From: Candidatus Bathyarchaeota archaeon
GTDB taxonomy: Archaea > Thermoproteota > Bathyarchaeia > Bathyarchaeales > Bathycorpusculaceae
Direction of reading: 5' to 3'
Assembly: GCA_963775895.1 (NCBI GenBank)
Contig: CAVZKL010000023.1
Coordinates: 1-64,000 of the forward strand
DNA: 64,000 bases
The translations under genes were made by a program, and so were the position numbers. Position 1 is the first letter of the stretch, and each line of letters opens with the position of its first letter. Positions 9,030 through 23,302 of this stretch are shown here, one piece after another. The notes under the pieces were generated by a model, which saw nothing but the letters and a program-made list of their open reading frames with translations, did not search any database and had not been told where the DNA came from.

Positions 9030-10739
9030 GTGAAAAGCGTGGAAAAGTTCACACACGACGTAATCATGATCGGTGCGGGCCTAGCAGGTCTGAGAGCCGC
9101 AGTGGCCGCCGCAGATGTCAACAACAAACTCGACATTGCGGTGATCTCCAAACATCACCCCTTGCGTTCACACTCGGTTTGCGCACAGGGCGGAACCGCC
9201 GCAGTCATGCGTGAGGAAGATTCGTTTGAACGGCATGCCTATGACACCGTCAAAGGCGCCGATTTTTTGGCAGATCAAGATGTAGCAGAATTCTTCGTAA
9301 AACAAGCTCCAAGAGAAATCGTGCTGACCGAGCATTGGGGATGCCCTTGGAGTCGCACCCCAGATGGAAAAATCGATCAACGCGCCTTCGGAGGTCACAC
9401 TTTTCCGCGTGCATGTTTTGCGGCGGACATGACGGGTTTTCATGAGATGCACGCGTTGTATGGCAAGGCTTCATCGTATGACAACATAAAATTCTACGAC
9501 GAATGGTTCGCTACTTCTTTGATAGTTGAAAACAAAACCGCAATCGGCTTGACCGCCATAGAAATGAAAACTGGAGAAATGAGAGCATTCGGCGCCAAGT
9601 CAATAGTGATGGCCAGCGGTGGACATGAACGCATTTACGAGTTCACAACCTTCTCTCACACAACAACAGGCGACGGCATGGCTATGGCATATCGCGCAGG
9701 AGCAGCCCTTGAAGACATGGAGTTCGTGCAATTCCACCCCACAGGTCTCGTTCCATCCGGTGTACTGATTACAGAAGGAGCCCGAGGCGAAGGTGGCTAC
9801 CTGATAAACGCTAATGGCGAACGTTTCATGAAGAAATACGCTCCTGAAAAAATGGAACTGGCTCCACGCGACGTGGTGTCGAGGGCCGAACAAACCGAGA
9901 TTCTTGAGGGCAGAGGCCTGATCGGACCCTATGGTCCATACATAGCCATAGACCTCAGACACTTGGGCGAAGAAAAAATAAATGAACGATTACCCCTGAT
10001 TCGAGACGTCGCAATAAAACTCGGCGGGGTCGACCCAGTTAAAGAACCGATACCTATCAGGCCCGCGGCCCACTATTCGATGGGGGGTATACAAGCAAAC
10101 ATCAGAACCGAAACGCCGACATCGGGATTGTACGCATCAGGAGAATGCTCGTGTCTGAGCCTGCATGGCGCGAACAGGCTGGGAACGAACTCGACGAGTG
10201 AATGCTTAGTTTTCGGAGCAGTTTCAGGCGAAGAGGCCGCGAAACACGCCATGAAAACTGGTCTGCACGAGTTACCTCACGAGAAGCTGGCGGAAGAAGA
10301 AAAACGGGTCTTCAACGGCATTCTAGGCAGCGAAGGTCCCGAAGCCGTACCTAAGATAAGAGACGAAATGAGGCAAATAATGAACCAAAAGGCCTGGATA
10401 TATCGGAGGGGTGACCAACTCGAGAGCGGCCTGAAAGAAATAAAGCAGTTGAAGGAAAGGTTCAAGAGAATTAAGGTCAGCGACAAGGGAAGACCCTTCA
10501 ACACTGGAATGCTCAACGCGCTTCAGCTGAGTTTCATGTTAGATCTCGCGGAAGTGACGATGGTAAGTGCACTTCCACGAAACGAGTCACGGGGAGCACA
10601 TTCGAGAACAGATTATCCAAAACGGGACGACCAGAACTGGTTGAAACACACGCTCGCATATTATACACGAGACGGGCCAAGGCTGGAATACGCTCCCGTC
10701 ACTATCACTAGGTGGCAACCTGCCGCAAGAACCTACTAG
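9030..10739 (+). CDS. sdhA: Succinate dehydrogenase/fumarate reductase flavoprotein subunit
   Basis: GAGLAG, RSHSVCAQGG (FAD-His), QFHPTG, HGANRLG, ESRGAH. Confidence 0.93.
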   Translation: MKSVEKFTHDVIMIGAGLAGLRAAVAAADVNNKLDIAVISKHHPLRSHSVCAQGGTAAVMREEDSFERHAYDTVKGADFLADQDVAEFFVKQAPREIVLTEHWGCPWSRTPDGKIDQRAFGGHTFPRACFAADMTGFHEMHALYGKASSYDNIKFYDEWFATSLIVENKTAIGLTAIEMKTGEMRAFGAKSIVMASGGHERIYEFTTFSHTTTGDGMAMAYRAGAALEDMEFVQFHPTGLVPSGVLITEGARGEGGYLINANGERFMKKYAPEKMELAPRDVVSRAEQTEILEGRGLIGPYGPYIAIDLRHLGEEKINERLPLIRDVAIKLGGVDPVKEPIPIRPAAHYSMGGIQANIRTETPTSGLYASGECSCLSLHGANRLGTNSTSECLVFGAVSGEEAAKHAMKTGLHELPHEKLAEEEKRVFNGILGSEGPEAVPKIRDEMRQIMNQKAWIYRRGDQLESGLKEIKQLKERFKRIKVSDKGRPFNTGMLNALQLSFMLDLAEVTMVSALPRNESRGAHSRTDYPKRDDQNWLKHTLAYYTRDGPRLEYAPVTITRWQPAARTY

Positions 10740-10743
10740 GAGG

Positions 10744-12318
10744 ATGACGTCAGTGAGTACTCATGTTGAAAAAACTGTCGAGTTCAAGATAAGTCGGTAC
10801 GACCCTGAAAAGAGCAGAAAGTACGTGTCAACATTCAAAGTGCCGATTCGGAAAGGAACAACCATGCTCGATGCACTCCTCTACATCAAGGACAATCTCG
10901 ACGATTCTCTGACGTTCAGGCAGTCCTGCAGAATGGGGATATGCGGCGACTGTGCAGTGAACGTTAACGGAAAGCCGATGCTTGCGTGTTACACGCAGGT
11001 GCTCGATCTTGACGCAGACTCGGTGCTTGTTGAACCGCTGTCAAACGCTTCTGTCATCAAGGACTTGGTAGTTGACATGCAACCCTTCTTCCAGACCTAC
11101 AAGAGAATCAAACCGTACTTGATAGAGCCTGAAGAAGATCTTAAGAAGCCCAGCGAGTTTGCCCAATCACCGACTGAGCTCAAGAAGTACTGGGATTTGA
11201 GCCTGTGCATAAAATGCGCGATATGCAATTCTGCCTGTCCTGCAATAATAGACGAGAAGTTTCTGGGTCCTTCTGCCTTGACGGCTACTTACCGTTGGGT
11301 GGCCGATTCGCGAGACAAGGGCAACGATGAGCGTTTGAAACCGATGACTGACAACGTGTGGCTGTGCACTCAGTGCAATTCGTGCACGCTCTTCTGTCCA
11401 AAGAAGCTGAGCTGTGCAGACTCGATAATCGATGATCACTGCCTGATAGTTGAAACTGGCAACATACCGCGGACCGTAAAAGACGTGCTTGAAAGCGTCT
11501 ATAAGTACCACAATCCGATGAGCACACCTCAAGCAAAGAGAATGGATTGGGCGAAAGACCTGAATGTGAAGACCTATCCGACCGTCACTAAGGCCGACGT
11601 GCTGCTCTTCACCTGCTGTTCAAACACGTATGACATCAGAAACCAGGAAGCAGCAAAGAGCTTGACTGAAGTTTTCAACAGGATGGGCGTGTCCTTCGCG
11701 ACGTTGGGTGCTGAAGAATGGTGCTGCGGAGATCACATGCTCAGAATGGGCGAAAAAGGACTTTTTGAAGAACTGGCTGAGCACAACATATCCATGTTCA
11801 AGCAGTTCGAAGCCAAAAAGATCGTGACCCTCTCACCGCACTGCTTCAACACTTTCAAGAATGATAAACCTTACAAAGACGCAGGCCTCAACGTCCAACA
11901 CTACACACAATTCTTGGCTGAAGCCGTGCAGAATGGCGCAATCAAACTGTCGAAATCCGTCAACAGGACGGTAGCCTACCACGACCCCTGCTTCTTAGGA
12001 AAACGCAACGATGTGTTCGACGCACCAAGACAGATACTGCGATCAATAAGCGGTTTGAAACTGGTTGAGATGAAAAGAACAAGGCAGAGTAGCTTCTGCT
12101 GCGGCGGAGGAGCTGGAAGAGTTTGGACGGAAGATGCATTGCCCGAAAAGAGGCCCAGCACCAACCGACTCCACGAAGCCGTTGAGCTCGAGGTAGACAC
12201 GATAGCCGTAGCATGCCCCTACTGCATAACCACCCTCGAAGACGCGGTCAAAGTGCTGGACATCGAAAACAAAATCGCCGTCAAGGACATACTCGAACTG
12301 GTGAAAGAAGCACTTTAG
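10744..12318 (+). CDS. SdhB/FrdB Fe-S subunit fused to two CCG domains (TfrB-like)
   Basis: SCRMGICGDC, CIKCAICNSACP, CTQCNSCTLFCP, then EWCCG, YHDPC, CCGGGAG, ACPYC. Confidence 0.85.
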   Translation: MTSVSTHVEKTVEFKISRYDPEKSRKYVSTFKVPIRKGTTMLDALLYIKDNLDDSLTFRQSCRMGICGDCAVNVNGKPMLACYTQVLDLDADSVLVEPLSNASVIKDLVVDMQPFFQTYKRIKPYLIEPEEDLKKPSEFAQSPTELKKYWDLSLCIKCAICNSACPAIIDEKFLGPSALTATYRWVADSRDKGNDERLKPMTDNVWLCTQCNSCTLFCPKKLSCADSIIDDHCLIVETGNIPRTVKDVLESVYKYHNPMSTPQAKRMDWAKDLNVKTYPTVTKADVLLFTCCSNTYDIRNQEAAKSLTEVFNRMGVSFATLGAEEWCCGDHMLRMGEKGLFEELAEHNISMFKQFEAKKIVTLSPHCFNTFKNDKPYKDAGLNVQHYTQFLAEAVQNGAIKLSKSVNRTVAYHDPCFLGKRNDVFDAPRQILRSISGLKLVEMKRTRQSSFCCGGGAGRVWTEDALPEKRPSTNRLHEAVELEVDTIAVACPYCITTLEDAVKVLDIENKIAVKDILELVKEAL

Positions 12319-15670: not shown

Positions 15671-15803
15671 TGGTGGGGTCGCTGGGATTTGAACCCAGGA
15701 TCGCCAACGCCCCAGGCTGGTATACTAAACCATTCTAGGAAACGGGAAACCATGATCACCAACAAAATGACCGAAATCCCGCTTCAAGCTATACGACGAC
15801 CCC
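15671..15803 (-). tRNA. tRNA-Pro(GGG) with encoded CCA and a 54-nt D-loop intron (15733..15786, position 17/17a)
   Basis: Reverse complement folds: acceptor GGGGTCG/CGACCCC, D stem GTAT/GTAT, anticodon arm CCAGC-CTGGGGC-GTTGG, T arm CTGGG-TTCAAAT-CCCAG, ACCA end. The insert forms hairpin GAAGCGGGA/TCCCGTTTC with a CTT bulge. Confidence 0.92.
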
Positions 15804-16774
15804 AACAACCCGAAACAACACCACAACAACTAAATAAACTATCTCAAAACCCCAAAGGAATACGAACGCCAAGATCAGAACCCGCAAACCACACCGAAGA
15901 AATCCAAAAGACTCTAGCATTAATGACCATACGCGGAAAAGCCAAAAGCACAATCAACAACGCAAGACGAAAACTAAACCATCTATCCCGTGTATGCAAT
16001 CTGTCAGACCCTAACGACGTAACCGAAGCCATTGGCTATTCAAGCATTGACAACTCAAGCAAAAACTCATACTCATACTTTTACGCATGGTACGCCAAAG
16101 CGAACCAAATCACGTACCAACGCCAACACTTCAAATACGAACTACCCGCACCCATAATGCCAACGACAAGCCAAGTCAACCGCATCATATCAGCCACAAC
16201 AACAAAATACGCAACAATCTTCAAGCTAATGACAAAAACCGCCGTCGAACCAGAAGAATTACACCAAACCCACCGAAACCAATTCGACCCCACCCAAAAC
16301 GTAATCACGATCAAAGGTCTAAAAGGTCACAGTAGCCAAGCGTACCCACTAATCGAAAACGTCGCCCTAATGCTCAAAGCCTACCTAGCAAAATACACCG
16401 AAGAATACCCCTTCCCATCAGCCAAATCAATGTCCGAAATGTGGCAACGAGCAAGAACCAAAGCCGCCGCCAACCACAACGACCCAACACTCTTAAAGAT
16501 TCCACTCAAAAACCTACGCAACTATTCAGGCGCACAACACTACCTAAACATGGAACGCCCCGACCCCATAGACACAATGCGACACTTCCGACACAAACGC
16601 ATGGAAACAACAATGCACTACCTACGAAACATGGTAATCGACCAAGACCCACACTACGACGTAAGAGAAGCCACAACACCCGAACAATGCAAAGAACTGG
16701 GACAAAAAGGCTACACCAAATTCGACGAAATAGACGGAAAACACCTATACCGAAAACGACAACAAACAGACTAA
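15752..16774 (+). CDS. Tyrosine recombinase/integrase A (int-C; frame open from the att core at 15719)
   Basis: KGLKGH, KNLRNYSG, FRHKRMETTMHY catalytic region; overlaps tRNA antisense. Confidence 0.85.
   Translation: MITNKMTEIPLQAIRRPQQPETTPQQLNKLSQNPKGIRTPRSEPANHTEEIQKTLALMTIRGKAKSTINNARRKLNHLSRVCNLSDPNDVTEAIGYSSIDNSSKNSYSYFYAWYAKANQITYQRQHFKYELPAPIMPTTSQVNRIISATTTKYATIFKLMTKTAVEPEELHQTHRNQFDPTQNVITIKGLKGHSSQAYPLIENVALMLKAYLAKYTEEYPFPSAKSMSEMWQRARTKAAANHNDPTLLKIPLKNLRNYSGAQHYLNMERPDPIDTMRHFRHKRMETTMHYLRNMVIDQDPHYDVREATTPEQCKELGQKGYTKFDEIDGKHLYRKRQQTD
15831..15838 (-). promoter_or_regulatory. TATA box for tRNA-Pro, inside integrase A coding sequence
   Basis: TTTATTTA 28-35 nt upstream of tRNA G1; equivalent TTTATAAT at the same offset in copy B (21066-21073). 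Confidence 0.55.
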
Positions 16775-16969
16775 TGCTATTCTGAAAACGCAAATAACTC
16801 CCCTCTTTTTTTAAAAAAAAGAAACTCGGAATCCCTGAAGCCTCTCAGTCTCAAGCCTAACCATCATGTCACGCTCACATCACGCTCACACTCCAACCCA
16901 CAAAAACAAAACAACAAATGGCGTCTCTTTATTTTCAAGGATGAGACTTACCCGCGCACATTTGCTGAA

Positions 16970-17470
16970 TCAAGGCAGTTTCAAGATCGCTACGCCAAGG
17001 AGAATTAGAACCCAGAATAAGTAGAGCCAGACTTTCCGTCGTCCCCACTCGTACCATTTCTTGCCGTGCAACCTAGCTCTCATGTCAAAATGAATGTTAA
17101 GCCTAGGGTCTGCTTCTCTCTCCATTTTTCTCAGTTTTGAGTAGCACATATCGTCAATCTTGTTCGTAGTCATATCAAAGCCTAACAGCCAAATACTGTA
17201 AATCGCCAAGGAAGCAGTAACAACAGCTATTCTGATGTTAAAGTCTATTGTTCCTCTCGACACCAGCTCTGCAAATGAAGCTAGAAGGACAACCGAAGCA
17301 GTAATCAGAATTGTTCCACTGACTATACTCATATTGTCTCTGGAACGAATGTTTGCGCTAATCTGCTCGTACTGAATCTTGAATGCTTCTGAAGAAGTCA
17401 ATGCTACTAGATTCGTTCTATACTCTTTTTTCTTGATCAGCCTTATGCGTTGAATCCTTGGAATCTTCAA
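16970..17470 (-). CDS. Multi-TM cargo protein of element A (true start probably ~17570 via an indel)
   Basis: Three hydrophobic helices; upstream frame encodes a further TM (ASCLVIIAGIIISAFYL). Confidence 0.55.
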   Translation of the reverse strand: MKIPRIQRIRLIKKKEYRTNLVALTSSEAFKIQYEQISANIRSRDNMSIVSGTILITASVVLLASFAELVSRGTIDFNIRIAVVTASLAIYSIWLLGFDMTTNKIDDMCYSKLRKMEREADPRLNIHFDMRARLHGKKWYEWGRRKVWLYLFWVLILLGVAILKLP

Positions 17471-17613
17471 TTTTGTCGTAATGCAAATAGAAAGCAGATA
17501 TTATGATTCCTGCGATAATTACTAGACAAGATGCAGACATTGCCAGATGTTTTCTCCGAACAATTTCATGTTGAACTCAGATTATAAACCTTGTGAAACC
17601 CTAGCCGTCTATA

Positions 17614-17656
17614 GCTCGTGAGCCTTCGGCTCGCTCGCACGTTCCAGACGATACGC
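17614..17656. repeat. ~44-bp hairpin-containing repeat, copy 1
   Basis: gctcgtgagcc-ttc-ggctcgctcgcacgttccagacgatacgc; near-identical to 23259-23302. Confidence 0.85.
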
Positions 17657-17762
17657 CAAGAAACCGACAAACTAACGAAGATTAATGTCCAATTAGAAAT
17701 TCTGGTGTGCGCGCCATTGTTAGACCCCTTGTCAAACTGGCACGCGTACGAAAAGTGTTATA

Positions 17763-18437
17763 ATGCTCAATGAGACTAGAAAGTTCGTTGGAGGTCACAC
17801 CCCTTTGACGGAAGATCAGAATCCGCATAGTCTCTTAGACCTTCAACCCAAACTGGATGAAGTGAAAGCTTTTAGCAATATTATACCGCACGAACTTGAA
17901 ATGGAACTAAAGAAAGCAGTGAAAATTGGAGACTTGGAGAAAACAAAGAGCATAATTGATGCCAAAATTCAACCAATCATTGATGACTACATGGTGAAGC
18001 TTCGCGGTCCGCCACTAGAAGGAGAACGAATTCTATGGCAACACATCGTCACCAAAGGCATATTCAACAAGGAAATTGTGGAGGTGTGGCGAATAACCGA
18101 CTTCAGAGCATTTCTAGGGGTTCCAAAGACAAAGACTTACATGGCTCCAAAGGTGGCTGTTGATGTGACGGTTTCAGGTGTCGGTCTAGCCGTGTGCGAC
18201 ACAGTTGTTATGAATCAACATCGCAAATCCCAAGGAAGTCGCGTGGGAACTTTCACAGGAGTTAGTGGAGGAGGATTTGTTGGAACGGGTGTGAGTTCAA
18301 GCGAAAGCACAAGCTCCACTTACGGAGATTTGATCTTCTTATTTAAAGGCAAGGAGGTTTTCCGTTTCAGAAGCATAAGTGACCCTAATGGTGTCCGCCG
18401 AATGATAGAGGCGATAAAGAGGGAAAAGAAAACCTGA
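17763..18437 (+). CDS. Hypothetical protein with PH-like C-terminal domain
   Basis: GERILW...WRITDFR...YGDLIF...FRSISDPNGVRRMI resembles bacterial/archaeal PH domains. Confidence 0.5.
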   Translation: MLNETRKFVGGHTPLTEDQNPHSLLDLQPKLDEVKAFSNIIPHELEMELKKAVKIGDLEKTKSIIDAKIQPIIDDYMVKLRGPPLEGERILWQHIVTKGIFNKEIVEVWRITDFRAFLGVPKTKTYMAPKVAVDVTVSGVGLAVCDTVVMNQHRKSQGSRVGTFTGVSGGGFVGTGVSSSESTSSTYGDLIFLFKGKEVFRFRSISDPNGVRRMIEAIKREKKT

Positions 18438-18459
18438 TAACCCCTAGCTCGCGCTACAG

Positions 18460-18837
18460 CTACGGTTCACTCAAATACGTAAAATGACCATCAGGCATCC
18501 TAATACGAATGTTCAAATAGTCATCAACAAAATCAGCGCAATACTCTTTAGTGATCGAATGACCCTTACCGCAAACCCAAGTGTTGATGTCACGACGAAA
18601 GACCAAATTCTTGCAGACCCCGCAGACATATTGCGACCAACGCTCAAACGACTTCTCAGTAAAAGTCCTGAACCTCTCGCGCGCGCGCCGCTCACGATTA
18701 CTCTTACCTCTAAAAGCGACCTTGCTCTTAGCTTCAAGGGAGTCAATCAAACTATAGTCACCAGAACGAACCTTTGCAAGCCGTTTCTTACCCAAAGCGA
18801 ACACCTCTAAAGTGGTAGTAGTGGTGATAAAACTCAC
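18460..18837 (-). CDS. Small basic Zn-finger protein downstream of rep
   Basis: CGVC...CGKGH...C; 12 bp from the rep stop codon. Confidence 0.5.
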   Translation of the reverse strand: MSFITTTTTLEVFALGKKRLAKVRSGDYSLIDSLEAKSKVAFRGKSNRERRARERFRTFTEKSFERWSQYVCGVCKNLVFRRDINTWVCGKGHSITKEYCADFVDDYLNIRIRMPDGHFTYLSEP

Positions 18838-18849
18838 TCATAAAAATTC

Positions 18850-19845
18850 TCACTCCCCCTCAACATGCGGAAGAGTAAAATTCTTCATAAACCCACGTTC
18901 ACCACGGTTAGAAACAACCCGAACGCCAGCAGGCAACGAACTATCATGCAAGTCGCCCTTACAAACTGCACACAACGGAACGTTAGGGCGTTTCACAGTC
19001 TTAAATTTCTTCTTCGACACGTTGCCCCACCAACGGATAATCTGAAAATTCTTAGCCCCCTCCAAGTAGCCCGAATGTTCAAGCTGATACCAGCACGTTC
19101 CAAAGAGAGACTCGCGCTTTTCAGCAACGCCTAACTCGTTGGTAGCCAGCTTCACAATCCAGCCGTCAGAATCGTACATCCTCCGAGTTAAAGCCTCAAA
19201 ACCGTCGCAAGCCAGATCGAGACAAACCCCGTTTACGTTCTTCGAGCACTCACGACACCTGTATCCCCCCTGAATGTAGCCCAAGCAGTGAAAGTGAAAC
19301 CCCTTAACCAGATCGCGTTTCTCCTTGTCTTTACGGAAAGGATGAACAATACTCGCACAGCCTACGATGCCCCTACGCCTAAGCGCAGACCAGCACAATC
19401 CACACATGACATCGTAAGACGTATGATACAACTCTTTAGGCATAGACGCAGAAATATGTTCAACCGACGAAACAGGCAAACCAGCAACGTTCACAGCGGT
19501 CAAAAAACGCGATTCCATGCCAAAAGCACGCCTCACAGCCCAACCGTATTTCCAGCAAGTATGACAACGATAGCTCCAACAGCTAGTAACGCTATTATGG
19601 TAGAAATCGCGCCCTCCAATCGAACCATGCAAAGACGTTTCAGAACACCGTTGAAACTTCCTATGTTTGCCGCAAAACGAATTAGTTGCAGGCTCACGAC
19701 CCACAATTTTCCAATCACCACGGAAGCCATCGCGCAAAGGAAAACTGTCATACTGAGTAATCCATTCTGTCTCCTGCTTTCCGAACCCAACAGCCTCCAG
19801 AAATTTAGCATCACGTCTACTAACGTCATTATTCTCAACCATCAA
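18850..19845 (-). CDS. HUH-superfamily rolling-circle replication initiator (SNJ1 RepA-like motif order)
   Basis: N-terminal Zn motif (C..YRCHTC), motif I HISASMP, HPFR, motif II FHFHCLGY, motif III WYQLEHSG, C-terminal CAVC. Confidence 0.7.
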   Translation of the reverse strand: MMVENNDVSRRDAKFLEAVGFGKQETEWITQYDSFPLRDGFRGDWKIVGREPATNSFCGKHRKFQRCSETSLHGSIGGRDFYHNSVTSCWSYRCHTCWKYGWAVRRAFGMESRFLTAVNVAGLPVSSVEHISASMPKELYHTSYDVMCGLCWSALRRRGIVGCASIVHPFRKDKEKRDLVKGFHFHCLGYIQGGYRCRECSKNVNGVCLDLACDGFEALTRRMYDSDGWIVKLATNELGVAEKRESLFGTCWYQLEHSGYLEGAKNFQIIRWWGNVSKKKFKTVKRPNVPLCAVCKGDLHDSSLPAGVRVVSNRGERGFMKNFTLPHVEGE

Positions 19846-20063
19846 AAAGCACCTTGAAGCGCTTCGAGAAAGTTCACGCTTTCAAACTCCTTATCTTATG
19901 TCATATCACTATGGGCTTCGTCTTAAATCAACTTTTCTTATATATTATATAACCACACGGATAGTGTACAAGACGCTTGGCAGCATGTATCCATACACTA
20001 GAAACGCACCTATGTTGCACACATTAACACGTTCAAAGCAAAACGCCACCTGCCACGCACGAA

Positions 20064-20471
20064 CTACGAGAACTCGCCTTTAGCCATCGTGACACAAACT
20101 AAAGCCAGAACTGAAAGAACCATCGTTGACAGCCCAAACAGCAGACCTCCGCCCAGTAGCCCACCCAACCCAAATGATATGTCAAAGGCTGCCATCGTCA
20201 CAAATCCAGAGAGCAACGTTAAACTCGTTCCCATAATCGAAAATCGAAAGTGTCTTCTCTCCATTGAGAACATACCTGCTTTCAAGCCTCCTGCAAAGCA
20301 GACTATGCCCAAGAGTCCCACGTACATCCAAAGATAGTCAGCGCTCGCGCCATGAAAGCTGTAATAGGTCACAGACCCCATGATTTCAACTATGCCAACG
20401 CAAAGGGACACAAAAGCGGCAATGATCGTCAGAACACCTGCGGCCGTCGGATAAGCTGTTTTATACATCAA
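20064..20471 (-). CDS. 4-TM membrane protein
   Basis: Four hydrophobic helices; paralog of 57670..58086. Confidence 0.65.
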   Translation of the reverse strand: MMYKTAYPTAAGVLTIIAAFVSLCVGIVEIMGSVTYYSFHGASADYLWMYVGLLGIVCFAGGLKAGMFSMERRHFRFSIMGTSLTLLSGFVTMAAFDISFGLGGLLGGGLLFGLSTMVLSVLALVCVTMAKGEFS

Positions 20472-20853
20472 TGCAAGCTCACCATTGCCTTGCTCTTATT
20501 TACCCCCAACGAAGACATTAGCCCACCGAAATTAAATTCACTGTTTAACCTAATAATCTTTCATTCAAGCCCAATCTGCCAGACATGAGACACCATTCTG
20601 AAGTGCTAGAGCGCAACCGTGCGTCTTTCCCTTAAGCCTCGACGCGCCGACAACTTGTATTCAGAACGGTTTCTCATACTCTTCCATAAAAGTTCGCCTC
20701 GCTAAAAAACTTATTGTCATGGAAAAGCGAAGTGTTTTCCACCGCTCTCCACTAGCTTGACATAAGTTTTTTCCTTTTCTCTCCACCAGAAAAGTCGCTC
20801 GGCTCACACAGGCGAAACCGAAATATGAATCAGTCATCAAAGGAAATGAGACC

Positions 20854-21006
20854 ATGAACAACGAACAGAACCAGCGGGAGAGCCAGAAGACTATGATAGA
20901 AGCAACCCCCACAGAAACAAAAAAAGAAATAATAAAAATGCAAAACGTAAAGACTGGTATACTAAACCATTTAGGTGAAAGTGACCCAATATGCACAACG
21001 AATTGA
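20854..21006 (+). CDS. Putative int-N fragment of split integrase A (50 aa)
   Basis: ATG 20854 reads MNNEQ...KTGILNH through the att core in the same codon phase as integrase A (AGILNH). Confidence 0.45.
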   Translation: MNNEQNQRESQKTMIEATPTETKKEIIKMQNVKTGILNHLGESDPICTTN

Positions 21007-21039
21007 TTCAGTCACAGTCACTAGCTATACGACGACCCC
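20954..21039 (-). repeat. Second tRNA-Pro 5' part (exon 1 + different 53-nt intron + D/anticodon-stem core) = attR of A / attL of B
   Basis: Exon 1 identical (agctatacgacgacccc), core identical; intron 20970..21022 differs in sequence but forms the hairpin GTGA..GTGACT/GGTCAC..TCAC. Confidence 0.88.
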
Positions 21040-21922
21040 AACAGCCAACAAATTATCAATCCGAGATTATAAACACTCTCATCAACGTAACCAACTCAGG
21101 GAAAGCAAAAAACACTCAAAGAGTATAGCATCATCCCTCAGACGAATAAGCAAAGGAGCAGACCTACTCAAACCTGAAGAAGTCAAAACCTACATCGCAA
21201 ACTCAACCTAGACAACCAAACCAAAAAACAGCCTAGCATTAGGATATAATTGGTTCTGCAAAACAAACGCAATTCAATGGAAACGACCATACTTCAAATG
21301 GGAGAGGAAAATACCTCTTATACCAACAACCGAAAACATCAACAAAATAATATCCGCATCGACACCGAAATACGCCACAATTTTTACAATCCTAGCCGAA
21401 ACAGGATTAAAAGCCCACGAACTAGTAACAACTGGAGACAAAGACATAGACATGACACAAGGAATCATAAACGCAAGAGGATGCAAAGGACACAACTCAC
21501 GATCATTCAAACTCAAACAAGCAACAGCAGAAATGCTGAGAGAATATCTCGCAGACTGCAACCAAGAAACACCGTTCCCATCATCACGATCAATGGGCGA
21601 AATGTGGAGAAGAACACGCAATCGACTCGCCAAAAAACTCAATCAACCAGAACTCAAAAACATATCTATGCGAAACCTAAGACACCACTTCGCCACTCAA
21701 AAATATGACCAAACCAAAGACATTCTACTACTCAAATCTCTACTAGGACACAAAAAACTCGAAACTACGATGTTCTATGTCCAGCTAATCGCACACGATA
21801 ACGACGAAGAATACACCGTAAAAACAGCCAGCAACATCAAAGAAGCCACCGATTTGATAGAACACGGATTCCAATATGTCACTGAAATGGGCAACATCAA
21901 AATATTTAGAAAACGAAAATAA
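20991..21922 (+). CDS. Tyrosine recombinase/integrase B (indels near 21118 and 21210)
   Basis: ATG in the intron copy gives MHNELIQSQSLAIRRPQQP; later ETGLKAHEL, RGCKGH, RNLRHHFAT, LGHKKLETTMFY. Confidence 0.8.
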
Positions 21923-22008
21923 CCGCCCTCTTTGTCTAACAAAACGCAAAACACAAAAGTTAAGCTAGCTAAAGTAACTCAAGCTGAATTCTTACATGAG
22001 GACGTCCA

Positions 22009-23217
22009 ATGAAGGTCTTCATAAGCTACTCATCGAAGGATGGAACTCAATATGCTAAGAAATTACGTGAAGTATTATCAGAAAGAGGACACGATGCATA
22101 CTTAGTTGACCATTCCCTATGTGTAACTGAAAACATGTGGGATGAGATAGGGAAAGAGATTCTGGGCAGAGAACGAACTATTTTTGTTATTACTGAATCC
22201 TCTCAAGAATCACGTGGTCAAAAGCAAGAGTATGATCTAGCTGTTGCTCGATACAGAAAAAATATGGCTTTGGTGAAGGAAGACTCTTGGAAAATCGTTG
22301 AAAACCGTTTTCCATTTCTGACTATTCCAAAGGGACTGATTTTCAATCAAGGAAATCTTGAAACAATTTGCGAATCTATATCAACACAATTAGTAAGACT
22401 CCAAGACCAAGAGGCAAAAGTTGAAAACATCAAAGTTAAACCCAAGCAAATAAAGTTTGAAAAGCTTGATAATAACGGTTTGGACGAATCCGAAGTTACA
22501 AAGTGTTTAGATGTTCTATCGTCTAGCTATCAAAATCAAACGATAATCCCTGAAGCTTTCTTCGTAAAAGAAGTGAAAAATGCGGGCAGTGCTTTCGTAA
22601 ACATAGGTTTCAATCATAGACTCCCCCGAGAATGGTTTTTGCCCTATGAACAAACCAACATCGAATACGCCAATGATTTCTTATTCCAACAATTTGGACG
22701 AGACATTGCATTTGCCGAAAGGGATTACTTAGTTAAATCAGTTGTTAAGACACCAAACGTGATTAACCTAGAAGCAGAACCTCAAGAACCAGATTCGCTT
22801 CTCGCTAAGATAAAGGAAGGCATATCAATCATAGAAAAAGCAGGACATAAGCCAAGAGTGATTTTTCCATCAATACCGCATTATTTGACGATGTATCAAT
22901 TTGGAAAGCTTGCGCGAGTTGAATACGATAATACAACTCCCACACCCACTTTGCGATTATCACTGAATATCGATAAACACAAACTAAAAATAATCGATCC
23001 ATTGGGTCAAATTCCCCGAGGCACTATCTTATTCGCTGATGAAGCAATAACGTGGAACGTTAAGACTTATCCAAGCCAAGGCGTTCTATATGCAGACCTT
23101 GGAAATGATAGACTGTATCCTAAAAAGTATGTAAACGCCTTAGCTTTGACATGCATAAAATGTGAAGTAAACTCTGAAAGTGCAGTAATTTTGAAGGATA
23201 AGGACATCAAGAACTAA
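22009..23217 (+). CDS. TIR-domain protein with ~260-aa C-terminal domain (possible HK97-capsid-like fold)
   Basis: KVFISYSSKD, EIGKEI..RERTIFVITESSQES...QEYDLA (catalytic Glu position). Confidence 0.8.
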   Translation: MKVFISYSSKDGTQYAKKLREVLSERGHDAYLVDHSLCVTENMWDEIGKEILGRERTIFVITESSQESRGQKQEYDLAVARYRKNMALVKEDSWKIVENRFPFLTIPKGLIFNQGNLETICESISTQLVRLQDQEAKVENIKVKPKQIKFEKLDNNGLDESEVTKCLDVLSSSYQNQTIIPEAFFVKEVKNAGSAFVNIGFNHRLPREWFLPYEQTNIEYANDFLFQQFGRDIAFAERDYLVKSVVKTPNVINLEAEPQEPDSLLAKIKEGISIIEKAGHKPRVIFPSIPHYLTMYQFGKLARVEYDNTTPTPTLRLSLNIDKHKLKIIDPLGQIPRGTILFADEAITWNVKTYPSQGVLYADLGNDRLYPKKYVNALALTCIKCEVNSESAVILKDKDIKN

Positions 23218-23258
23218 AGTCTGTATTATTCCTTGGACAAGATACAAGCAATCAAGTG

Positions 23259-23302
23259 GCTCGTGAGCCGTTTGGCTCACTCGCACGTTCCAGACGATAC
23301 GC
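23259..23302. repeat. ~44-bp hairpin-containing repeat, copy 2
   Basis: gctcgtgagcc-gttt-ggctcactcgcacgttccagacgatacgc. Confidence 0.85.

Follow-up and report, generated by a model that had tools for sequence, protein, structure and literature searches.

What does a protein fold that builds virus heads do when it is joined to an immune effector? This question is raised by a single gene in a 64,000-nt stretch of DNA from a Candidatus Bathyarchaeota archaeon (contig CAVZKL010000023.1, positions 1 to 64,000; hereafter the window), which encodes a protein of 402 aa composed of an N-terminal TIR domain, a linker and a C-terminal domain with a predicted HK97 fold (Table 1). The gene is present in one copy in a genome of 1.77 Mb (28 contigs, 88.8 % complete). 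The HK97 fold builds virus heads, gene transfer agents, satellite capsids and encapsulin organelles, whilst TIR, HNH and similar immune effectors are activated once their oligomerisation is induced. The fusion of the two is probably an undescribed coupling of capsid-type assembly to antiviral defence. As to how it might work, the account that we favour, with a confidence somewhat short of even, is that of a single-gene antiviral protein in which infection triggers an HK97-type assembly that brings the effectors together and so aborts the infection.

A TIR domain joined to a predicted HK97 fold

The N-terminal part of the protein matches Pfam TIR_2 over residues 3–81 (E-value 4.7e-13), with a score of 50.1 bits that lies above the curated threshold of 28. 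A first-pass annotation of this DNA had proposed a TIR domain with its catalytic glutamate position, and this is borne out by alignment: E74 shares a column with the glutamate of the YELD/YELN motif in solved bacterial TIR NADase chains, which we take to be the catalytic residue of these enzymes, and it is kept in all 18 Pfam-TIR-positive rows of the family alignment described below. As judged from sequence, therefore, the TIR domain keeps the putative catalytic position. TIR_2 is the only match in a Pfam scan of the whole protein, which reveals neither a STAND NTPase nor a repeat sensor. A profile of the family matches solved TIR NADases and TIR-STING in the PDB; profile searches of PDB sequences return TIR chains only, with none for the C-terminal part, and the TIR part used as a single sequence finds no match there. 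Between the two domains, the full-length AlphaFold2 (AF2) model places a helix at residues 114–139, with a predicted local distance difference test score (pLDDT) below 50 over residues 131–154.

Residues ~130–402 are without a match in Pfam (E-value ≤ 0.1), PHROGs (E-value ≤ 1), NCBIfam or PADLOC, and the evidence for a capsid-type domain comes from predicted structure. The first AF2 model, of the full-length protein and built from 12 sequences, was mediocre (pLDDT 60.8), but already ranked encapsulins and HK97 capsid proteins at the top, both by Foldseek and in a structure search of 48,161 chains (Z 14.5). A second model, of residues 150–402 alone (model residue 1 being the start of this segment) and built from 28 sequences, reaches a pLDDT of 95.5 and a predicted template modelling score of 0.90. 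Its best match among the 48,161 chains is 2e0z_A, the shell of the Pyrococcus furiosus fusion encapsulin (Z 17.6, root-mean-square deviation 2.4 Å, 208 of 236 residues), and the next three are Family-1-type encapsulins (Z 17.3, 16.9 and 15.6). These are followed by capsid proteins of phages, an archaeal tailed virus, a gene transfer agent, a phage-inducible chromosomal island and herpesviruses, with Z from 14.8 to 10.4. A Z of at least 8 is reached by 79 chains, and amongst the matches listed, which span Z 17.6–10.4, capsid and encapsulin proteins make up 50 of 50 rows. Foldseek returns 229 matches from the PDB at E-value ≤ 1e-3, the top 14 of them encapsulins and with template modelling scores of up to 0.70, along with 206 matches to predicted viral structures at the same threshold. 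The first-pass annotation had suggested a structure search as the check on its capsid-like reading of this region, and the top fold matches are indeed HK97 capsid proteins and encapsulins.

In the confident model an N-helix (residues 160–177, model residues 11–28) precedes the position of the E-loop, which is occupied by a β-hairpin (strands 185–189 and 197–206). A spine helix (223–247) and an A-domain helix (261–277) follow, together with strands at 282–286, 324–328, 339–343, 374–387 and 392–397. The A-domain, the P-domain with its long spine helix and the E-loop hairpin thus stand in canonical HK97 order in the predicted structure, and the sequence segments that had originally been read as an HK97-like pattern coincide with the predicted spine helix, A-domain helix and strands. 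The accompanying remark that the E-loop was seemingly deleted does not hold: a hairpin spanning residues 185–206 sits at that very position, and model residues 11–247 align to residues 110–345 of 2e0z_A without net length deficit relative to the P. furiosus shell domain, so that the loop is short and not deleted. The alignments of three of the top four encapsulins start at model residue 1 and that of 2e0z at residue 11, and hence the N-helix is covered by all of them, whilst those of phage capsid proteins mostly start at model residue ~26; this difference points to a compact, encapsulin-like fold. Taken together, residues ~160–400 are predicted to adopt the HK97 fold in full, in its compact, encapsulin-like variant. 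With regard to other encapsulin classes, the protein has no match to PF08967, the family of the Family-4 A-domain encapsulins; those consist of an A-domain only, of ~100 aa, as against the full fold of ~240 aa found here. A three-copy complex prediction of the HK97 domain, made without control runs, scores 0.29 against a mark of 0.42 and speaks neither for nor against assembly.

An alternative assignment for the last ~100 residues, as an immunoglobulin (Ig)-like repeat module, was suggested by the 19 stretches of the protein P0045, and was discarded, as the confident model puts these residues in the P- and A-domains of the HK97 fold. Separately, two cysteines are conserved in most family members, C166 in the N-helix (codon 22504–22506) and C385 in the last P-domain strands (codon 23161–23163), with both absent from some stand-alone forms; the pair may represent a contact, a disulfide or a metal site.

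Table 1. Position of the features discussed, numbered along the window except where a locus is named

Feature	Position	Strand	Basis and remarks
Whole gene, TIR – linker – HK97-fold domain	22009..23217	+	ATG start, 402 aa; open reading frame list
TIR domain, residues ~1–125	22009..22383	+	Pfam TIR_2 (PF13676)
E74 codon, putative catalytic glutamate of TIR	22228..22230	+	alignment to bacterial TIR NADase chains
Linker, residues ~126–159	22384..22485	+	long helix, then low-confidence stretch; full-length AF2 model
HK97-fold domain, residues ~160–400	22486..23208	+	AF2, all-chain structure search, Foldseek
~45-nt element with GTGAGCC/GGCTCAC hairpin	23258..23302	.	direct repeat D1, alignment, fold
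Integrase B, tyrosine recombinase	20975..21922	+	translation; 315 codons with in-frame TAG 21209–21211 (codon 79)
Integrase A, tyrosine recombinase	15689–16774		intact
att/tRNA-5′-part repeat copies	20951..21046 and 15714–15810 (inside tRNA-like gene)		repeats D2, D3
tRNA-like gene	15671–15803	-	Rfam tmRNA model, E-value 1.6e-7, below gathering
Capsid gene of provirus locus L038	locus 9960–10844	-	294 aa; Linocin_M18 E-value 2e-51; PHROG 'major head protein' E-value 8e-22

Relationship to capsid and encapsulin families

The structural likeness has little counterpart in sequence. The 402-aa protein has no Pfam match to PF04454 (Linocin_M18), the family of the Family-1 encapsulins, and the HK97 part of the other family members is likewise without a Pfam or PHROG match to a capsid or encapsulin family; one relative, P0048, has a sub-threshold match to ENCP4 (E-value 1.4e-3). 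When the family was compared by hhalign with 14 Linocin_M18 proteins of the same phylum, a probability of 8.4 % (P 0.004) was obtained, with 74 aligned columns in the correct register from the spine helix to the A-domain helix, whilst the control comparison of viral with cellular Linocin_M18 proteins gave 99.7 %. On this evidence, the HK97 part is a separate and deeply diverged family that stands outside the Family-1 encapsulins. A look-up in the ESM Atlas returned unnamed clusters only (0.90, low recognition) and was not used.

A rare family with exchanged effectors

A word-index search recovered 12 relatives, and an exhaustive HMMER search of 1.84 billion representative proteins recovered 40 at E-value ≤ 1e-3, 13 of them at E-value ≤ 1e-30. 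The alignment used here comprises 48 family rows. Three proteins were left out of it: P0041 and P0045, Ig-like repeat proteins that are weak representative matches and were rejected as spurious, and P0038, an apparent chimera. The last of these is an 878-aa relative of the TIR–HK97 protein that runs past residue ~300 into GC-rich (guanine–cytosine-rich), low-complexity, MerR-containing sequence, and is probably the product of a chimeric contig or a miscalled gene.

Within these 48 rows the N-terminal module is TIR in 18 and HNH in four, and in one DUF4062 is the only N-terminal match. Five further rows, of 237–301 aa, have a short or absent N-terminal part, and the remainder are fragments or lack a recognisable N-domain. 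The stand-alone forms nevertheless keep the N-helix of the family, as well as its 'P.EWFL' motif and the 'FGR.IALGE' motif of the spine helix. A maximum-likelihood tree of the HK97 part was calculated from 29 of the 48 rows, the 19 with fewer than 200 domain residues being left out. On this tree the N-terminal modules are interspersed, with well-supported branches requiring at least four label changes for TIR and at least two for HNH. A DUF4062 form is sister to an HNH form (support 97/95), and a TIR form lies inside a deep clade of stand-alone forms (98/96). A survey of other effectors on the domain, as the first-pass annotation had advised, thus finds them. Judging by the tree, the effectors on the HK97 scaffold have been swapped repeatedly, a pattern typical of sensor–effector immune proteins. 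Across 15 full-length TIR fusions, conservation amounts to 53 % in the TIR part and 44 % in the HK97 part.

With regard to distribution, the family is rare and patchy. Ten of 401 genomes of the phylum match the family profile, nine of them via the TIR end only, so that the genome of the window alone covers the HK97 part. Pattern-based scans found no relative in one genome per GTDB species and, with two different queries and limited sensitivity, none in 2.9 million viral contigs. Metagenomes contributed six short loci with relatives, one of which exceeds 2 kb; at this one context-bearing locus the relative stands beside an EF-2-type GTPase and a nitrilase-like hydrolase, as read by eye. No neighbour of the window gene recurs in the six loci, and the absence of a conserved partner gene from the little context available fits a single-gene unit. 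A 413-aa frame in a genome of the same archaeal family (L008, G258:C49:1370-1885) matches profile positions 3–171, covering the TIR domain and linker, and leaves the HK97 part of the profile unmatched; going by this match, it may carry another C-terminal module on the same TIR–linker unit.

Tailed viruses of the lineage

Tailed viruses appear to be frequent companions of these archaea: amongst 81 genomes of the order, 31 carry Terminase_6N, and within the family the share is 11 of 15. One genome of the same family holds an 11-kb provirus head module (L038, G061:C3:46000-64000) with a large terminase, a capsid protein, a cement/scaffold-like protein, a head maturation protease and a portal protein, and its type of capsid is present in four of 81 genomes of the order. 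On the strength of these gene assignments, tailed viruses with compact, encapsulin-type capsid proteins circulate in this archaeal lineage. The L038 capsid protein belongs both to the encapsulin family and to a PHROG head-protein family, and in this bears on the evolutionary link between viruses and encapsulins.

Genomic setting

The gene resides in an island that extends from the tRNA-like gene to ~25 kb and includes two tyrosine recombinases. To its left are fumarate-reductase-like and aldehyde:ferredoxin oxidoreductase genes, and to its right a phosphoesterase and an aminotransferase. The view that the gene is AT-rich cargo directly behind integrase B is confirmed: at 0.38–0.40, compared with 0.45–0.51 in the flanks, its GC content makes it the most AT-rich part of the region, and integrase B ends just upstream of it. 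Integrase B matches Phage_integrase (E-value 1.4e-10), and its best NCBIfam match, for the C-terminal part, is XerA-type. Its in-frame TAG could reflect a nonsense-inactivated gene, read-through or a start further downstream at 21452. The att-like repeat occurs in exactly two copies in the window, where none would be expected by chance; a third copy that would mark the right end of the element of integrase B (element B) was not found in the window. ARAGORN detects no tRNA in the whole window, and the tRNA-like match within the att repeat is consistent with an intron-bearing tRNA.

A hairpin element stands 41 nt (23218–23258) after the stop codon of the TIR–HK97 gene. A second copy, 94 % identical (D1), is located at ~17613–17656, after the cargo gene of the neighbouring element A, so that each integrase is followed by one cargo gene and then by the hairpin. 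Community contigs from four public runs were compared with the island, the reading being limited to the covered parts, and these contigs break or join at the hairpins, at 23257–23259 and at 17613. Joints at 16906–17613 and 16906–23259 connect the 3′ flank of integrase A to a hairpin with 3–4 letters between them, whilst a joint at 16798–23257 has ~33 other letters between that flank and the hairpin. One contig joins 15739 to 21019, skipping element A altogether. Varied sequences precede the hairpin at 23259, with ten loose ends in X1 and seven in X2 (agreement 0.47 and 0.49, respectively). The sides of the joints are short, at 20–39 nt, and were read at 90 % likeness. The joints probably derive from related elements carried by other organisms, as would be expected if the elements form a family whose cargo slot varies. 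Hence the interval between integrase and hairpin looks like such a slot, empty where the joint has 3–4 letters and reminiscent of cassette systems, and the TIR–HK97 gene occupies that of element B. No portal, protease, scaffold, terminase or other virion or packaging gene was found in the island using Pfam and PHROGs. Element A also contains a cysteine-rich 331-aa open reading frame (18850–19845, minus strand) with sub-threshold, Csx27-type matches only.

Possible function and alternative explanations

The favoured account supposes that the HK97-fold assembly module controls a toxic N-terminal effector by induced proximity. In the uninfected cell the protein would be unassembled, or present in small inactive units. 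Upon infection by a tailed virus, the capsid protein, scaffold, protease or portal of the invader would nucleate or join a capsomer-like assembly of the HK97 domain, and, with the N-terminus on the concave, lumenal side, where a virus has its delta or scaffold domain, the assembly would gather five or six effectors. Once clustered, TIR domains could form a composite NADase site, which would use up NAD+ or produce a signal, with HNH versions cutting DNA. Either the cell under infection or the growing capsid with its contents would then be lost before virion maturation. Since TIR, HNH and DUF4062 are proximity-switched immune effectors and the HK97 fold is an assembly module, it is most economical to suppose that assembly gates the effector. 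Assembly templated by infection is ranked first on two grounds: it is difficult to see how TIR domains packed constitutively into a closed shell could provide an NADase that is either useful or harmless, and the lineage commonly hosts tailed viruses whose capsid proteins have this compact fold. The capsid-decoy interpretation put forward at first pass is thereby partly supported, with the fold and the effector survey in its favour; co-assembly with a viral capsid, scaffold or protease is something that we infer. A bolder form of the proposal is advanced tentatively, and with some doubt: a capsid-fold immune receptor that stays unassembled until the head machinery of the invader templates its capsomers, and so senses co-assembly with the pathogen lattice. 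It is with the same reserve that polymerisation is suggested to activate TIR, HNH or DUF4062 on the inner face of such a receptor.

A number of observations weigh against infection-triggered assembly. The best structural matches are shell-forming encapsulins, N-helix included, which fits self-assembly at least as well as co-assembly, and since stand-alone HK97 forms exist, the domain must have a function that is independent of an effector. Comparison by hhalign with 12 cellular encapsulins gives a weak, non-significant signal (probability 20.2 %, P 0.0011, 72 columns from the spine helix to the A-domain), and that with four provirus capsid proteins, a shallow profile of only four sequences, a probability of 0.2 %; on this value, with the same shallow profile behind it, a recent origin of the HK97 domain by copying of a capsid gene from a local provirus was rejected. 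PADLOC identifies no defence gene in the three neighbouring proteins scanned, the flanking genes are metabolic, and genomic context from outside the window is thin. Finally, the genome carrying the window has no match to a terminase, Phage_capsid or Linocin_M18 at its 88.8 % completeness.

A serious rival, absent from the first-pass annotation, is suggested by the closeness of the domain to Family-1-type shells, N-helix included, namely that the protein self-assembles into a shell around its effector. Here a constitutive, closed, icosahedral shell of the encapsulin type would hold TIR, HNH or DUF4062 in its lumen in the manner of the P. furiosus ferritin-like domain, so that the enzyme is kept from cellular NAD+ or DNA and kills when the shell opens, fails to close or is cleaved; a non-immune role is also conceivable. 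All four top structural matches are in keeping with this, the best being itself an archaeal N-terminal fusion encapsulin, as are the stand-alone forms of ~240–275 aa and the faint signal to cellular encapsulins, which is in register. Moreover, known N-terminal fusions are internalised, and the ferritin-like ones are all archaeal, in the portions of the literature drawn on (PMC8346489, PMC11664910). What makes us regard such a shell as rather unlikely is that its 60 or more lumenal TIR domains would be constitutively active if NAD+ enters and useless if it does not, with no release component seen. In addition, the swapped cargoes are standard induced-proximity immune effectors and not metabolic enzymes, and the protein lies outside Linocin_M18 by sequence, in a family that is very rare, patchy and carried as mobile cargo, whereas Family-1 encapsulins are common in the phylum (48 of 301 genomes). 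The structural preference for encapsulins does not decide the matter, as local viruses have encapsulin-type capsids too, and so it cannot separate a shell from a mimic of the local capsid.

It is also conceivable, though distinctly improbable in our estimation, that the HK97 fold acts only as a switchable multimeriser whose trigger has nothing to do with viral capsids. Candidate triggers would be nucleic acids, small molecules, stress signals or some other viral protein that binds in a pocket between N-helix and P-domain, the outcome still being effector clustering and abortive infection. Effector swapping fits this equally well, and there is no detectable sequence similarity to viral capsid families or to the capsids of local proviruses; it would, however, leave unexplained why a capsid fold was chosen among oligomerising folds, in a lineage where tailed viruses with compact capsids of the same fold are common. 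Lastly, the protein might serve the small integrative element, as a satellite-like parasite or a competitor of viruses, in place of the host. The gene follows immediately on an integrase and is part of a tandem series of elements integrated at a tRNA-like gene; this position, and the variability of the integrase-to-hairpin interval across the community, would agree with a weapon of the element that poisons or hijacks the capsids of helpers or rivals, for example as a dominant-negative subunit carrying a nuclease or NADase into the head. As the N-terminal domains of HK97 proteins face the interior of the head, an incorporated HNH would meet packaged DNA. Such a weapon, or a relic capsid gene that has captured a TIR domain, is nonetheless the least probable of the explanations considered, and very unlikely, given that further virion or packaging genes were not found in the island, that the scan of viral contigs, within its limited sensitivity, returned no relative, that one metagenome relative lies, as read by eye, beside apparent housekeeping genes and that the adjoining integrase B has an in-frame stop.

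Should infection-triggered assembly be correct, cells or mobile elements would be using a capsid-type lattice to switch on immunity, perhaps with the assembling capsid of the virus as its template; alternatively, encapsulin-type shells would cage toxic enzymes, and either outcome would be new for the phage-defence and encapsulin fields. Sensing by co-assembly would constitute a recognition principle distinct from that of the binding-domain sensors Avs, CapRel and Lit, and a third fate of the HK97 fold besides virus capsids and encapsulin organelles. The locus would enlarge the scant knowledge of antiviral systems in uncultured archaea and, if it works as proposed, would provide a compact module, within a single 1.2-kb gene, for assembly-gated enzyme activation.

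Comparison with known systems

Searches of main texts in the literature brought up no account of an immune effector joined to an HK97 or encapsulin domain; the passages around the key terms in PMC13700489, PMC12803255, PMC8987985, PMC8346489, PMC11664910, PMC7824862 and PMC10884400 contain no such fusion. The 2021 encapsulin census, as far as its main text goes, gives as N-terminal fusions a ferritin-like protein (all archaeal) and a dihaem cytochrome c, and the words TIR, HNH and nuclease have no occurrence in that text (PMC8346489). In the sections of PMC11664910 drawn on, all Family-1 shell proteins are described as having the N-helix, and the encapsulin N-terminus as lying inside the shell, such that N-terminal fusions are lumenal and become internalised on assembly; viral delta domains are presented there as N-terminal fusion scaffolds in the same position.

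Set against these systems, the protein most resembles the P. furiosus fusion encapsulin (2E0Z), also archaeal, in its succession of functional domain, flexible linker and compact HK97 domain with an N-helix. In P. furiosus it is a ferritin-like protein that is carried on the N-terminus of the shell, and here TIR, HNH and DUF4062 stand in place of the ferritin-like or cytochrome domain; the N-terminal fusion might act as lumenal cargo, and these three modules are not amongst the cargo types described in the main text of the census (PMC8346489). Unlike Family-1 fusion encapsulins, the protein falls outside Linocin_M18 (hhalign 8–20 %), is rare and borne by a mobile element, and any shell that it forms is putative. 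With the HK97 capsid proteins of tailed viruses, including that of L038, it shares the fold (Z 14.8–10.4), the TIR domain and linker occupying the delta/scaffold position; unlike tailed-virus capsid genes, it is without nearby head genes, a sequence match to a capsid family or relatives found in viral contigs.

Amongst defence systems, Avs7, Avs8 and Avs10 sense an HK97-fold capsid protein with tetratricopeptide repeat (TPR) sensors, and capsid motifs are sensed by Lit and CapRel, according to the relevant passages of PMC12803255. In short-Argonaute systems, as the corresponding part of PMC12738770 describes them, the effector may be either TIR or HNH, and filament assembly induced by the target switches on the HNH type. 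The family studied here has the same effector repertoire as the Avs/STAND and short-Argonaute systems (TIR, HNH and DUF4062-like), along with the logic of being turned on by assembly that is proposed above, but the TIR–HK97 protein has no NTPase, TPR or Argonaute/APAZ domain. A likeness to Thoeris is confined to the TIR part, which is weakly ThsB-like (PADLOC, E-value 6.9e-5) and scores 27 bits against the NCBIfam model of Thoeris-III ThcB4, far under the cut-off of 220; no ThsA-type partner is present in the three neighbours scanned, and the C-terminal domain is unrelated. The presumed sensor would be the capsid fold itself, recognising its target by like-with-like assembly, as opposed to an Avs-type binding domain wrapped round it.

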